A stretch of 64,000 nt of DNA from Escherichia coli O127:H6 str. E2348/69. Its GTDB lineage: Bacteria > Pseudomonadota > Gammaproteobacteria > Enterobacterales > Enterobacteriaceae. Where the stretch lies: the NCBI RefSeq assembly GCF_000026545.1, contig NC_011601.1; one strand, written 5' to 3'. Under the pieces are notes generated by a model. That model did not search any database and was not told where the DNA came from. It saw only the letters and a list, made by a program, of their open reading frames with translations. Each line of letters begins with the position of its first letter. The stretch's first letter is position 1. Shown in pieces: positions 6,336-12,695 of this stretch. Both the position numbers and the translations under genes were made by a program.

Positions 6336-7244
6336 TTAAAAATACCCCTGACGTTTTTTCAGCTCCATAGACCCCGCCTGGTCGCGGTCAATCACGCGGC
6401 CCTGACGTTCACTGGTGGTGGAAACCAGCATCTCTTCGATGATCTCCGGCAGTGTTTGTGCATTTGACTCCACCGCACCGGTCAGCGGCCAGCAGCCCAG
6501 CGTACGGAAACGCACCATCCGTTTTTTAATCACTTCGCCCGGTTGCAGGTCGATACGGTTGTCATCAATCATCATCAACATACCGTCGCGTTCCAGAACC
6601 GGACGTTCCGCAGCGAGATACAGCGGCACAATGTCGATATTTTCCAGCCAGATGTATTGCCAGATATCCTGCTCGGTCCAGTTAGAGAGCGGGAAGACGC
6701 GGATGCTTTCGCCTTTGTTAATTTGCCCGTTGTAGTTGTGCCACAGCTCCGGGCGCTGATTTTTCGGATCCCAGCGATGGAAGCGGTCACGGAAAGAGTA
6801 GATTCGCTCTTTAGCGCGGGATTTCTCTTCGTCACGGCGCGCGCCACCGAAGGCGGCATCAAAACCGTATTTGTTCAGCGCCTGTTTCAGGCCTTCGGTT
6901 TTCATAATATCGGTATGTTTCGCGCTGCCGTGTACGAATGGATTAATCCCCATCGCCACGCCTTCCGGGTTTTTATGCACCAGCAGCTCGCAGCCGTAGG
7001 CTTTCGCCGTACGATCGCGGAACTCATACATCTCGCGGAATTTCCAGCCGGTATCGACATGCAGCAACGGGAAAGGCAGCGTACCTGGATAAAACGCCTT
7101 GCGCGCCAGATGCAGCATGACGCTGGAATCTTTACCGATAGAGTAGAGCATCACCGGATTTGAGAATTCTGCAGCCACCTCGCGAATAATGTGGATGCTT
7201 TCCGCCTCCAGTTGCCGCAGGTGGGTAAGTCGTTTTTGATCCAT
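6336..7244 (-). CDS. cysD: sulfate adenylyltransferase subunit 2
   Basis: 302 aa, PAPS-reductase-like fold ([16 protein letters not shown]...). Confidence 0.9.
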
Positions 7245-7495
7245 AACCGTTCCTTTGCAATACCGCTATTTTCTTGCCATCAGATGTTTCGACTATAGGG
7301 AGCGTAAGAGAACGAATGAAATTACCAATTAGAATGAGTAGTTCCTTAACGGAATAACGATTTGGCAAAGCTAATATCAAAAAGTGCTTAAGGCACCGGA
7401 TTTCGGGCGTTTAGGAAGATTTGAAATTGTTTTAGCGCAGCGGCAGTTTCATACTATGGCGGTAAAAAAATTTGCATGGTATTTAAGGACTCACT

Positions 7496-8533
7496 ATGTT
7501 TTCCGCATTGCGCCACCGTACCGCTGCCCTGGCGCTCGGCGTATGCTTTATTCTCCCCGTACACGCCTCGTCACCTAAACCTGGCGATTTTGCTAATACC
7601 CAGGCACGACATATTGCTACTTTCTTTCCGGGACGCATGACCGGAACTCCTGCAGAAATGTTATCTGCCGATTATATTCGCCAACAGTTTCAGCAAATGG
7701 GTTATCGCAGTGATATTCGGACATTTAATAGTCGGTATATTTATACCGCCCGCGATAATCGCAAGAGCTGGCATAACGTGACGGGAAGTACGGTGATTGC
7801 CGCTCATGAAGGCAAAGCGCCGCAGCAGATCATCATTATGGCGCATCTGGATACTTACGCCCCGCTGAGCGATGCTGACGCCGATGCCAATCTCGGCGGG
7901 CTAACGTTACAAGGAATGGATGATAACGCCGCAGGTTTAGGTGTCATGCTGGAACTGGCTGAACGCCTGAAAAATACGCCTACCGAGTATGGTATTCGAT
8001 TTGTGGCGACCAGCGGCGAAGAGGAAGGAAAATTAGGCGCTGAGAATTTACTCAAGCGGATGAGTGACACCGAAAAGAAAAATACGCTGCTGGTGATTAA
8101 TCTCGATAACTTAATTGTTGGCGATAAGCTGTATTTCAACAGTGGCGTAAAAACACCTGAAGCAGTAAGGAAATTAACGCGCGACCGGGCGCTGGCAATT
8201 GCCCGCAGCCATGGAATTGCCGCCACCACAAATCCAGGTTTGAATAAAAACTATCCGAAAGGCACCGGGTGTTGTAATGACGCAGAAATATTCGACAAAG
8301 CCGGTATTGCTGTACTTTCGGTGGAAGCGACTAACTGGAATCTTGGCAATAAGGATGGTTATCAGCAACGCGCAAAAACAGCCGCATTCCCTGCAGGAAA
8401 TAGCTGGCATGACGTAAGACTGGATAATCAACAGCATATTGATAAGGCACTTCCTGGAAGAATAGAACGCCGCTGCCGTGATGTTATGCGGATAATGCTA
8501 CCGCTGGTGAAGGAGCTGGCGAAGGCATCTTAA
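7496..8533 (+). CDS. iap: alkaline phosphatase isozyme conversion aminopeptidase
   Basis: 345 aa with signal peptide and M28 peptidase motifs; position after the cysDNC operon. Confidence 0.85.
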   Translation: MFSALRHRTAALALGVCFILPVHASSPKPGDFANTQARHIATFFPGRMTGTPAEMLSADYIRQQFQQMGYRSDIRTFNSRYIYTARDNRKSWHNVTGSTVIAAHEGKAPQQIIIMAHLDTYAPLSDADADANLGGLTLQGMDDNAAGLGVMLELAERLKNTPTEYGIRFVATSGEEEGKLGAENLLKRMSDTEKKNTLLVINLDNLIVGDKLYFNSGVKTPEAVRKLTRDRALAIARSHGIAATTNPGLNKNYPKGTGCCNDAEIFDKAGIAVLSVEATNWNLGNKDGYQQRAKTAAFPAGNSWHDVRLDNQQHIDKALPGRIERRCRDVMRIMLPLVKELAKAS

Positions 8534-8630
8534 TGGGTTTGAAATGATTACTCCCTTGCCTGCAGGAAATCAATGCCACCAGAAACAGAGTATAAAAAAG
8601 GGTGCAGGAGACCAAACCATCACAATTCAG

Positions 8631-8650
8631 TACGCGGGGTTTTACCCCGC
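8631..8650 (-). terminator. GC-rich stem-loop (cgcggggttttaccccgcg) just 3' of the hok-like ORF; candidate hok mRNA 3' terminal structure
   Basis: Perfect 7-bp stem with 5-nt loop, 8 nt downstream of the hok stop codon on the minus strand. Confidence 0.35.
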
Positions 8651-8657
8651 GTGGTGG

Positions 8658-8810
8658 CTACTTCTTCGATTCGTAAGCGAGAACTGCCTTAAACTCCATA
8701 CCACGTTCTCTGATACTCAACTCACACAACGAGTCGCCTACCATCAACGTGAATCCCAGTACTGTACAACACAGTACGATGATTGCCACAAGGGCATATT
8801 TTGTCAGCAT
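8658..8810 (-). CDS. Hok/Gef-family type I toxin (50 aa), HokE/HokA-like
   Basis: Minus-strand ATG at 8808-8810 gives [50 protein letters not shown]; single TM helix plus conserved DSLCE...AVLAYE Hok motif; below the 60-aa ORF-track cutoff. Confidence 0.7.
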
Positions 8811-8814
8811 GTCT

Positions 8815-10150
8815 GTGTAAGTTCACAGAGATATTGCAATTGCCTCCGGATAAGTAAGGGGAGATTGCACTATGCAAATGCAGCATCTGATGGTTGGCTA
8901 TCCTAAGTACTACCAAACGGCCGATTATGCGTTGAGGCTTTCAGTGATGGCTGATATAGCAACAATGAGAATGAAGGCTCTGCACTTCTGGGATAAACAC
9001 GGTATTTCTGCAGCTTCTGAAGCCTTTGGCGTGTCCTGCCGCACGCTTTACTGGTGGCGTCAGTTACTGAACAAGGAAGGACCTGAGGGGCTAATCCCGC
9101 ACAGTAAGGCACCTCTGGTGCGACGAAAAAAACACTGGCATCCCGATGTGCTGAAAGAGATTCGACGCCTCAGGACAGAGCTGCCGAACCTCGGTAAAGA
9201 GCAGATTTTTGTTCGCCTGAAGCCCTGGTGCGAACAGCGCTATCTGGCCTGTCCGAGTGTTTCCACCATCGGCAGAATGATCGCTGCCGCACATGATAAA
9301 ATGCGGATGATACCTGTGCGTCTGGGATCGCGGGGGAAGGCACTGCTTGTCAAAAAGCGGTCTGCCAAACCCCGCAGGCCAAAGCACTACCGCCCGGTAA
9401 AGACAGGTGAGCTCATTGGGATGGACGCCATTGAGCTCAGAATGGGCGAACTGCGTCGCTATGTCATCACCATGATCGACGAATGCAGCAATTACGCGCT
9501 GGCGCTGGCTGTGCCGTCACTCAACAGTGATATCGTCAATCACTTCTTCAGCCGCGCAGCCCGGTTGTTCCCGGTCGGTATCAGCCAGATAATCACAGAT
9601 AACGGAAAAGAGTTCCTGGGAAACTTCGACAAAACGCTGCAGGAAGCCGCTATCAAACACCTCTGGACCTATCCCTACACGCCAAAAATGAACGCTATCT
9701 GTGAACGTTTTAACCGGACGTTAAGAGAGCAGTTTATTGAATTTAATGAGATTTTACTCTTTGAAGATCTGGCGCTATTTAACCAGAAGCTGGCGGAATA
9801 TCTGGTGCTGTATAACAGCAAAAGACCCCACAAGGCGCTCGCACTAATGACGCCCGTGGAATATATTTTAAAAGAGAATAAAAATTGCAATATGTGGTGG
9901 ACCCATACAATGTCTTGCCTCCTTGCAAAGAAGAGACTAACATCCGAATTGCTTAGGTTCGAACGTAGGCCTCAGGTTGATAGAAATATCGCCTGGGGCT
10001 TTTGTCCATCTGGAACCTCGCGAATGCTTAACGCCAGACAGCCTCAAGCACCCAACGCCATTCTATACCTGTTAATTTTCCCTGCGATGTTCACCTTTAA
10101 ATGCCGGAATGCTGCTCGCAAAATAAAAACGCCCCATCATTTCTGACAGA
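8815..10150 (+). mobile_element. insertion sequence (boundaries approximate; terminal inverted repeats not confidently identified)
   Basis: Transposase gene in a locus that is otherwise K-12-collinear; left end must lie between the hok start (8810) and tnp start (8872). Confidence 0.4.
8872..10146 (+). CDS. DDE (rve integrase-core) transposase with N-terminal HTH; IS481-family-like single-ORF transposase; C-terminal ~90 aa may be read-through
   Basis: 424-aa ORF with HTH (GVSCRTLYWWRQ) followed by rve motifs (ITDNGKEF, NSKRPHKAL); sits where the cas genes are in K-12. Confidence 0.7.
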   Translation: MQMQHLMVGYPKYYQTADYALRLSVMADIATMRMKALHFWDKHGISAASEAFGVSCRTLYWWRQLLNKEGPEGLIPHSKAPLVRRKKHWHPDVLKEIRRLRTELPNLGKEQIFVRLKPWCEQRYLACPSVSTIGRMIAAAHDKMRMIPVRLGSRGKALLVKKRSAKPRRPKHYRPVKTGELIGMDAIELRMGELRRYVITMIDECSNYALALAVPSLNSDIVNHFFSRAARLFPVGISQIITDNGKEFLGNFDKTLQEAAIKHLWTYPYTPKMNAICERFNRTLREQFIEFNEILLFEDLALFNQKLAEYLVLYNSKRPHKALALMTPVEYILKENKNCNMWWTHTMSCLLAKKRLTSELLRFERRPQVDRNIAWGFCPSGTSRMLNARQPQAPNAILYLLIFPAMFTFKCRNAARKIKTPHHF

Positions 10151-10174
10151 GGCGTTTAATTTATCCGGCAATAT

Positions 10175-10909
10175 TTACCCTTCGTGTAATCCACATTCCC
10201 TTTTTAAGCCAAAGAAACGCGTTTCTTCTTCCGCCATGCCGGGTTCCCATTTACGGGTTGTATGGGTATCGCCCACCGATAAATATCCTTCATCCCATAA
10301 TGGGTGATATTTCAGGCCATGTTTTTGCAGGTACTGATAAATAGTTCGGTTATCCCAGTCGATAATCGGCAGCACTTTAAATACGCCACGCTGAATTGCC
10401 AGCACCGGTAAATTGGCGCGACTGCCGGATTGTTCACGGCGCAGGCCAGCAAACCAGGTTTGCGCATTCAGTTCTTTCAGCGCCCGGTTCATCGGTTCGA
10501 CTTTGTTGATGTCATTGTACTTTTCAATGCCTTCAACGCCCTGCTCCCACAGTTTGCCGTAGCGTGCTTCCTGCCAGGCGGCGCTTTCGGTAGCACGATA
10601 CACTTTCAGGTTGAGCTTGAGTTTGTCCGTTAACTCGTCAATAAAGCGGTAGGTTTCCGGGAACAGATAGCCGGTATCGGTGAGGATCACTGGAATATCC
10701 GGGCGAATCTGATTCACCAGATGCAGACTCACCGCCGCCTGAATGCCAAAGCTGGAAGAAAGTACATATTCACCGGGCAGATTATCCAGCGCCCAGGCTA
10801 CGCGGCCTTCAGCGTCCAGTTTTTCCAGTTGGGCGTTAGTTTCCGCCAGCGCCAGAATCCGGTCTACCTTTGGCAGTTCGTTCAGGGCGTTTAGATCGAG
10901 TTTGGACAT
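10175..10909 (-). CDS. cysH: phosphoadenosine phosphosulfate (PAPS) reductase
   Basis: 244 aa [27 protein letters not shown]... ending ...ECGLHEG; start taken at the internal Met of track ORF 10175..11062. Confidence 0.9.
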
Positions 10910-10930
10910 AAGTTCCTCACTGTTTGCCTT

Positions 10931-10968
10931 GCCTGATGCAACGCTTACACGTCTTATCAGGCCTACAA
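10931..10968. repeat. REP element in cysI-cysH intergenic
   Basis: gcctgatgcaacgcttacacgtcttatcaggcctacaag matches E. coli REP consensus. Confidence 0.6.
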
Positions 10969-10982
10969 GACCAGGCTGATGG

Positions 10983-12695
10983 TTAATCCCACAAATCGCG
11001 CGCCGGATCGAGCACCGGGCGAATGATGCCCGCACGCACCGTAAAGTCGCCGAAGCCTTCACCCACTTCGCGCTCTTTCGCCCAGCGCCCTATCAGTTCA
11101 TCAAGCGACGCCAGGATTTCCGACTCGGTGATGTTTTCTTTATACATCCGTGGGATACGTGTCCCAATGCGGTTGCCGCCAAGATGCAGGTTGTAGCGAC
11201 CCGGCGCTTTCCCCACCAGACCCACTTCCGCCAGCATCGCGCGACCACAACCGTTCGGGCAGCCTGTTACACGCATCACGATATGCTCATCGCTGACACC
11301 ATGTTTCGCCATTAAATTATCGATGTTGTCGATAAAAGACGGCAGGAAACGCTCCGCTTCCGCCATCGCCAGCGGGCAAGTCGGGAATGACACGCAGGCC
11401 ATTGAGTTTTCACGCTGCGGCGTGACGGCATTCATTAACCCGCTCTCTTTGGCGATCTTCTCGATCTTCGCTTTCTCGCTTTCCGGCACGCCGGCGATGA
11501 TCAGATTCTGGTTCGCCGTAATGCGGAAATCACCTTTGTGGATCTTCGCGATCTCCAGCAGGCCAGTTTTCAGCGGGCGCCCCGGATAATCAAGAATTCG
11601 ACCATTTTCGATAAACAGCGTCAGGTGCCAGTTATCATCAATGCCCTTAACCCAGCCAATACGATCGCCGCGTCCGGTAAACTCATACGGGCGAATCGGC
11701 TCGAATTTGATCCCCGCGCGACGCTCAACTTCCGCTTTAAACGTCTCAACCCCCACGCGCTCCAGCGTGTATTTGGTTTTGGCATTTTTACGATCGGTTC
11801 GGTTACCCCAGTCACGCTGAGTCGTCACGACGGCTTCTGCCACCGCCAGCGTATGCTCCAGCGGCAGATAACCAAACTCACTCGCCGTGCGGGCGTAGGT
11901 TTTCTTGTTGCCGTGCTCGATGGAAAGCCCACCGCCCACCAGCAGGTTAAAGCCCACCAGCTTGCCGTTTTCGGCGATCGCCACGAAGTTCATGTCGTTG
12001 GCGTGCAGATCGATATCGTTCTGCGGCGGGATCACTACCGTGGTTTTGAACTTACGCGGCAAATAAGTCTGACCGAGGATCGGTTCTTCATCGGTGGTGG
12101 CGACTTTTTCCTGATCGAGCCAGATCTCCGCATACGCGCGGGTACGCGGCAGCAGATGTTCAGAAATTTTCTTCGCCCATTCATATGCTTCCGCATGCAG
12201 CTGCGACTCGTAAGGGTTCGAGGTGCAGAGTACGTTACGGTTCATGTCGTTGGCGGTCGCCAGCGCATCAAGACCGACCGAGTGCAGCATCTGATGCACC
12301 GGTTTGACGTTCTTTTTCAGAATGCCGTGGAACTGGAATGTCTGGCGGTTGGTCAGGCGAATGCTGCCATAGATGGTGTTTTCACCGGCAAATTTGTCGA
12401 TCGCCTGCCACTGTTTAGTGGTAATCACCCCACCCGGCAGACGACAGCGAAGCAGCATCGCGTGACGTGGTTCCAGCTTCTGTTCAGCACGTTCGGCGCG
12501 GATGTCGCGGTCATCCTGCTGATACATGCCGTGGAAGCGGATCAACAGGAAGTTATCACCCTTAAAGCCGCCGGTCAGACCGTCATTTAAATCTTCCGCA
12601 ATGGTGCCGCGCAGGTAGTTGCTTTCAAGCTTCATGCGCTCGGCGTCTGTCAGTTTTCCTTCGACCACTAAAGGTCCTGGATGTTTTTCGCTCAT
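10983..12695 (-). CDS. cysI: sulfite reductase hemoprotein beta subunit
   Basis: 570 aa; siroheme/4Fe-4S sulfite reductase motifs; stop overlaps cysH region and start overlaps cysJ stop. Confidence 0.9.

Follow-up and report, generated by a model that had tools for sequence, protein, structure and literature searches.

Does the 50-codon frame on the minus strand at 8658-8810 of the 64,000-nucleotide stretch of Escherichia coli O127:H6 str. E2348/69 analysed here (the window) encode a genuine Hok/Gef toxin, and does it lie in a locus that can still produce it? The answer we arrive at has two parts: the frame is the toxin gene hokX of the hokX/sokX locus, and a 1096-bp insertion sequence (IS) at its start codon leaves it without Shine-Dalgarno (SD) sequence, leader and promoter, so that what we see is very probably a silenced copy that has not decayed.

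The 50-aa peptide proposed in the first-pass annotation is reproduced exactly by translation of the window at 8658-8810 (-), and its placement in the Hok/Gef family of type I toxins holds: the match to the Pfam profile HOK_GEF (PF01848) exceeds the gathering score (39.1 bits, cutoff 22, E = 5.7e-10) and covers profile positions 1-42 of 42. A search of a 5.8-billion-protein collection recovers 318 homologues of the peptide; among the matches listed, all those with a Pfam assignment carry PF01848, and the named ones are Hok/Gef or Hok family toxins. The product is typical of the family in being about 50 aa long, with a Cys...LCE...AYE core and a hydrophobic N-terminal half. The transmembrane helix claimed for its N-terminus is borne out by mean Kyte-Doolittle values above 2 in 19-residue windows over approximately residues 1-28, and so is the conserved Hok signature: C14, T16, L28, E30, E39 and A45 are all present and are invariant with HokA-E of K-12. 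If the peptide is made, its N-terminal helix would be expected to insert in the inner membrane and collapse the membrane potential.

Compared with the K-12 paralogs, the peptide is 78% identical to HokE, 48% to HokA, 39% to HokC, 38% to HokD and 33% to HokB. The initial impression that the peptide is closest to HokE and HokA is thus right as a ranking of these paralogs, but the gene is an ortholog of neither. Orthology with HokA is rejected, as the match to the NCBIfam equivalog NF007290 reaches 53 bits, short of its cutoff of 89, and identity to K-12 HokA is 48%. Orthology with HokE is rejected at 78% identity because the gene occupies the cysH-iap locus, whereas hokE of K-12 lies elsewhere, between ybdK and entD; it is hence a paralog of hokE. 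The reading that so small a frame is a chance ORF, or a decayed pseudogene without relation to Hok function, draws on small size alone, and the Pfam E-value, the 78% identity to K-12 HokE and the presence of an identical protein across thousands of genomes make it an exceedingly remote prospect. Neither a missing profile match nor a frame disrupted among close relatives is seen: annotations of other E. coli include the identical protein. The remark that the ORF had been missed is accurate for the program-made list consulted at the time, which has a 60-aa cutoff (a mechanical list with a lowered length cutoff includes 8658-8810 (-)), but RefSeq already annotates the gene. Judged by its sequence, this ORF is a genuine, known and already annotated Hok/Gef gene.

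The genomic neighbourhood supplies its name. The window region is 100% identical to the E2348/69 chromosome, for which RefSeq gives the order: cysC, cysN, cysD, iap, the Hok/Gef family protein WP_000956458.1, an integrase core domain-containing protein carrying a pseudogene flag, cysH, cysI and cysJ. In uninterrupted alleles the identical protein is encoded directly downstream of cysH, and is followed by iap (Seattle 1946) or by cas3 (type I-E CRISPR-Cas). All that K-12 has retained between cysH and cas3 is sokX (b4701), an annotated small RNA. The cysH-adjacent locus has been named hokX/sokX (PMC7232551, PMC12736100); among uropathogenic strains, hok together with sokX is found beside cysH in 90%, and the remainder have sokX alone (PMC12736100). 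The window locus has the same position beside cysH, here next to iap, and also contains the SokX sequence. The ORF at 8658-8810 is hokX, the toxin gene of this chromosomal type I toxin-antitoxin locus, which the majority of E. coli have beside cysH. Three further observations concern the surroundings. At the hokX-iap junction of the window neither the type I-E CRISPR-Cas cluster of other E. coli nor its array is present, and homology to cas3-bearing strains stops right past the hok U run. Between iap and the 3' end of the hok mRNA there are only about 60 bp (window 8534-8593). A REP-like match to Rfam naRNA4 at 10930-10962 (+) is sub-threshold (24 bits against 59.5) and apparently falls in the cysH-cysI intergenic region.

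The first-pass annotation treated this locus as intact, that is, as a self-contained hok/sok locus with regulatory RNA elements flanking the ORF, and presumably functional. The ORF is indeed intact and a true Hok, and the elements of the 3' UTR lie directly downstream of it. Alignment with the uninterrupted alleles, however, refutes the view at the sequence level and leaves it very improbable: a 1096-bp IS481-family element sets the hok ATG apart from its SD, leader, promoter and Sok gene, and the 60 nt directly before the ATG are IS sequence (Table 1). The insertion site lies between the SD and the ATG of hok, in a 5-bp GACAT that spans the start codon. The native sequence ...GCA(G/A)GGAGGCAAGACATGCTGACAAAATAT... 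is interrupted after GACAT, with the break point at GGAGGCAAGACAT^G in the alignment with intact alleles; in the window the two junctions read ...GGAGGCAAGACAT|TGTATGGGTCC... at 9910/9909 and ...CTTACACA|GACATGCTGAC... at 8814/8813. The hok ATG (8810-8808) survives because the duplication provides its first two bases.

Table 1. Features of the interrupted hokX/sokX locus, in window coordinates.
Feature	Position	Strand	Description
hokX ORF	8658-8810	-	50 codons + stop, frame intact; translation, Pfam, RefSeq CDS WP_000956458.1
fbi-like element and U6 run	8594-8613	-	GGUCUCCUGCACCC at 8600-8613, U6 run at 8594-8599; 3' end of hok mRNA; complementary to 5' end GGGUGCUUGAGGCU
3'-UTR long-range segment	8614-8631	-	pairs with leader positions 94-110 (9944-9960) in IS-excised mRNA; MFE and centroid
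conserved GC hairpin of hok 3' UTR	8632-8652	-	ACGCGGGGUAAAACCCCGCGU; between stop codon and fold-back elements
target-site duplication GACAT (- strand), hok-proximal	8809-8813		alignment with uninterrupted alleles; supplies AT of hok ATG
IS481-family IS	8814-9909	+	1096 bp; + strand ends TGTGTAAG...CCCATACA; imperfect terminal inverted repeats of ~27 bp
transposase ORF	8872-10146	+	346 codons inside IS, no stop
upstream ORF	9779-9943	-	12 codons (MLVSSLQGGKTC) in intact alleles, stopping 4 nt inside hok; here 54 codons, running into IS
target-site duplication GACAT (- strand), leader-proximal	9910-9914		alignment with uninterrupted alleles
hokX mRNA leader	9910-10053	-	144 nt; from 5' tac-like end GGGUGCUUGAGG at 10042-10053 down to SD; Rfam RF01794
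putative sokX promoter	9915-9943	+	-35 TTGCCT at 9915-9920, 17-nt spacer, -10 TAACAT at 9938-9943
hokX Shine-Dalgarno GGAGG	9918-9922	-	1.1 kb from hok ATG here
SokX antisense RNA homologue	9951-10009	+	59 nt; 55/59 identical to K-12 sokX b4701
putative hokX promoter -10 TAGAAT	10060-10065	-	6 nt upstream of mRNA 5' end; by sequence inspection

The affinities of the element are clear from several of its features: a transposase of the DDE type, inverted repeats, a short target duplication and a length in the range of ~1-1.3 kb. The transposase matches Pfam rve and rve_3 and scores 220.8 bits with the NCBIfam model transpos_IS481, just below the cutoff of 224 (E = 2.5e-65); other copies of the element carry the RefSeq name 'IS481 family transposase'. 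The termini are TGT...ACA with imperfect inverted repeats, including an 11/11 internal repeat, and a 5-bp duplication is seen at the hokX site and at seven other insertion sites of this IS. Copies that are 100% identical over 1-1096 occur on many plasmids, for which reason we regard the element as intact and recently mobile; its ends are conserved at other sites. The transposase gene is directed away from hok. Its frame has no stop inside the IS, which accounts for the RefSeq flag 'incomplete, missing C-terminus', and continues for another 78 codons, read antisense to the hokX leader and into the spacer between cysH and hok. In other copies the transposase frame is closed by a flanking stop no more than a few codons past the IS, for instance the TGA created by a TCAA target.

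Beyond the element lies the other half of the locus. A scan of 7000-11500 finds an Rfam RF01794 'sok' match at 9904-10053 (-), 1.1 kb from the ORF, with 104.6 bits, exceeding the gathering score of 59. This 'sok antitoxin' model describes the hok-sense strand, namely the whole leader from its 5' end to the start codon, and the antisense Sok RNA itself is unmatched; in the window its last three positions (AUG) are aligned to an ATG in the tip of the IS. In intact alleles the leader is contiguous with hok and the GGAGG SD stands 7 nt ahead of the ATG, whereas in the window the two do not adjoin on one mRNA. As expected of a cis-encoded Sok antisense RNA, the complement of leader positions 45-103 corresponds to window 9951-10009 (+), the SokX homologue, which folds into a hairpin/stem-loop followed by UUUUGU (z = -3.1). 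The -35 element of its putative promoter is complementary to the SD region of hok and borders on the IS, with its first base just outside the duplicated GACAT. This promoter was read by eye relative to the 5' end of K-12 SokX; with 8 of 12 matches it was left unflagged by a consensus scan. A canonical long mok frame that overlaps hok and has a start codon was not found at the hokX locus. In the intact alleles, the 12-codon upstream ORF has a TGA that overlaps codon 2 of hok, and it might serve for coupling in the manner of mok.

The two halves can be rejoined computationally. Removal of the IS and of one duplication copy in silico yields a 359-nt hok mRNA identical to the Seattle 1946 allele except at one base. 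Its predicted folding energy is -133.2 kcal/mol, shuffled sequences giving -108.4 ± 5.0 (z = -4.99), and in both the MFE and the centroid fold positions 1-14 pair with 340-353, closing the 5' end on the 3' end: the partners are 5' GGGUGC..GAGGCU (window 10053-10040) and GGUCUC..GCACCC (8613-8600). A tac/fbi fold-back architecture of this kind is known from the R1 hok mRNA, and the restored hokX mRNA shows it in its classic 5'-3' form in the predicted folds of the IS-excised sequence only. The ~400 nt of minus-strand transcript originally suggested for folding would run into the IS, but the fold-back that was anticipated does appear once the IS is excised. The GC stem-loop noticed in the first-pass annotation is also present: CGCGGGGTTTTACCCCGCG is at 8633-8651 (+), 1-2 nt from the quoted 8631-8650, with the full helix at 8632-8652. 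It forms an independent local 9-bp helix in every fold computed and is not, as had been supposed, the fold-back element; the pairing partner of the 5' end is located 20-50 nt further downstream, at 8600-8613. In the 3' 76 nt folded alone, stability is not significant (z = -1.2) and the hairpin is the only robust structure; the fold-back needs the 5' end. An uninterrupted allele would thus be expected to give a hok mRNA of ~359 nt that begins at GGGUGCUUGAGG, has the SokX target in its leader, and ends with the GC hairpin, the fbi-like element and the U run. By analogy with R1 hok/sok, the fold would keep the full-length mRNA untranslated, and SokX would trigger decay of the activated form.

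How common is the interrupted form? Of 5426 complete E. coli genomes, 4182 have the uninterrupted allele by a 101-nt probe over the native SD-ATG junction, at a coverage of at least 80%, and 35 have the IS-hok junction that marks the IS allele. Twelve of these 35 are iap-adjacent as in the window; in the rest, O103:H2 strains among them, cas3 is the downstream neighbour. Most of the remaining genomes match in the leader half only, as does K-12. In the sokX-only allele of K-12, homology to intact hokX ends at the hok ATG, 1-2 bp from the IS insertion point. An origin of that allele by IS-mediated deletion is unsupported: past the breakpoint in K-12 no IS remnant was detectable, only chance matches of 8-10 nt.

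The insertion at hokX is also not a singular event. The same IS lies 3-15 nt upstream of the ATG in at least nine hok paralogs, both chromosomal and plasmid-borne, always in one orientation and with the transposase divergent; sampled blind to the flank, the hok start zone accounts for ~9 of ~32 distinct insertion sites. Metagenome contigs were scanned for exact matches to the hok-proximal IS end, giving 116 contigs with ~31 distinct flanks, in eight of which a full-length Hok ORF starts 5-15 nt past the IS tip (hmmsearch E = 1e-8 to 1e-29). The hok types found behind the IS are diverse: hokC/D-like (MKQQKA...), R1-hok-like (MKLPG...), hokA-like next to cspA (MPQKY...), hokE-like (MLTKY...), srnB-like, and the divergent MKVPP... 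and MSQKS... types. Where both flanks of metagenomic hok sites are available, the duplications are GGAGA, GGAGG and GTGCT, and the other flank is a hok leader. An IncFII plasmid carries, in this order, a hok leader (Rfam match), the IS and an srnB-like hok, with the duplication AGTTT and the IS end 5 nt before the ATG; this IncFII srnB-like IS-hok junction is found in 12 PLSDB plasmids. One of three identical plasmid copies of the IS that were inspected has a hok beside psiA (IncF) in the same arrangement, the junction itself being unread. A scan of species-representative genomes for the IS end gave two uninformative matches only, an E. ruysiae fragment and a Streptomyces assembly. The latter is a 566-bp contig of Streptomyces malaysiensis in which 27 nt match the enterobacterial IS end exactly, and is most likely contamination. 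A frameshifted copy of the IS between arsC/agrB and dinQ is beside a different type I toxin locus, which may be coincidence.

Since positions and duplications differ among the hok sites, they point to independent transpositions rather than to spread by recombination. With 5-10 hok loci per genome we estimate that ~0.0003 such sites would be expected by chance, and chance is not a credible explanation for ~9 of ~32 sites in a ~12-nt window of a few loci. The insertion sites outside hok have in common only the short pattern [G/T]CAA|RNNNN, a motif that alone cannot explain the hok association; degenerate hok leaders were not recognized in their flanks, either by eye or by Rfam. In our estimate there is an even chance that this IS481-family element prefers the ~12-nt SD/ATG window of hok loci, with the transposase always pointing away from hok. 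The pattern may reflect true targeting, or strong selection for insertions that silence the toxin and spare the antitoxin. No description of an association between IS481-family elements and hok was found in the searchable literature, ISfinder lying outside its scope, and this recurrence is the only part of the analysis that might be new. A real preference would give hok loci two dedicated IS hot spots, this one and the IS186 site in the 3' GC hairpin, and would mean that the element uses toxin-antitoxin loci either as safe landing sites or as targets for antitoxin-sparing silencing. Recurrent landing of this kind suggests that type I toxin-antitoxin loci are targeted on the basis of sequence or structure and would help to explain why IS-inactivated hok genes are frequent.

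What remains of hokX function in the window can be considered in terms of three blocks: promoter, leader, SokX and SD (9910-10065); the IS (8814-9909); and ATG, hok ORF and 3' UTR (8594-8813). As the IS cuts the ORF off from its SD, its leader and its Sok antisense RNA, hokX is probably silent, and from the loss of these signals we infer that it is untranslated and probably little transcribed. SokX, and a truncated leader transcript that runs into the IS, could still be made. It could be argued that hok is nevertheless expressed, either by transcripts from the hokX promoter that read through the element or from an outward-facing promoter at the IS end, as a toxin module under altered control that possibly benefits the IS. 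A crude scan shows no intrinsic terminator on the hok strand within the element, so that read-through from the hokX promoter is conceivable; the hok strand of the IS end has a GGAGGCAAT motif; and at the nine hok loci the Hok ORF remains full length behind the IS, five of them keeping SD and ATG together with the IS just upstream of the SD. In the window, however, the SD has been removed, and the nearest GGAGG is more than 30 nt from the hok ATG, too far to serve as one. An admittedly insensitive consensus scan detects no promoter-like site facing hok between the IS and the ORF. Moreover, an IS-borne transcript would be without the Sok target and the inhibitory fold, and unregulated Hok should, judging from R1, be lethal; read-through RNA, with 1.1 kb largely untranslated, would be a likely substrate for Rho. 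We consider continued expression improbable on these grounds. The hokX ORF is undamaged in all IS-allele carriers listed, and the lack of decay in ORF, leader and 3' UTR fits a recent insertion but also continued function, and gives no power to detect relaxed selection. With silencing as the preferred reading, E2348/69 is probably a natural hokX-silent, SokX-positive variant. Cloning or folding the 'hok locus' of this strain as the sequence around the ORF would omit the leader, the SD and SokX, which are 1.1 kb away.

The closest known systems are the hokX/sokX loci of other E. coli, which share the position, the leader and SokX, and encode an identical protein (e.g. Seattle 1946); the window copy differs in being split at its start codon by the IS481-family element, and K-12 in having lost the hok half. 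In E. coli B, hokX has IS421/IS186 in its 3' hairpin, downstream of the ORF, in place of an IS481-family element. The plasmid R1 hok/sok system has in common with hokX a 50-aa toxin with an N-terminal transmembrane helix and an antisense RNA against the leader. In the full-length R1 mRNA, 5' tac pairs with 3' fbi, and a GC hairpin follows the stop codon. For hokX the corresponding tac/fbi fold-back is seen in silico in the IS-excised sequence. R1 hok/sok is plasmid-borne, whereas hokX is chromosomal and interrupted and has a 12-codon upstream ORF, no long mok having been found. HokE of K-12 (b4415) has 78% amino-acid identity and a related leader, but belongs to the ybdK-entD locus.

Inactivation by IS elements is itself a familiar fate of chromosomal hok loci in K-12 (Pedersen and Gerdes, 1999, as cited in PMC7232551). 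In K-12 hokA, IS150 lies 32 bp upstream of the ATG and mokA is truncated; in hokC and hokE, IS186 is found ~19 bp downstream. IS186/IS421 sits inside the GC hairpin past the hok stop in both K-12 hokE (duplication around GGAGTAATCC) and hokX of E. coli B. As in the window, the IS-inactivated hokA, hokC and hokE retain an intact ORF with the IS close by but outside the frame. They differ in the IS families concerned (IS150 for hokA, IS186 for hokC and hokE), and the window insertion falls exactly at the start codon, SD|ATG. The window copy is therefore a known kind of IS-inactivated hok locus, such inactivation having been known since 1999.
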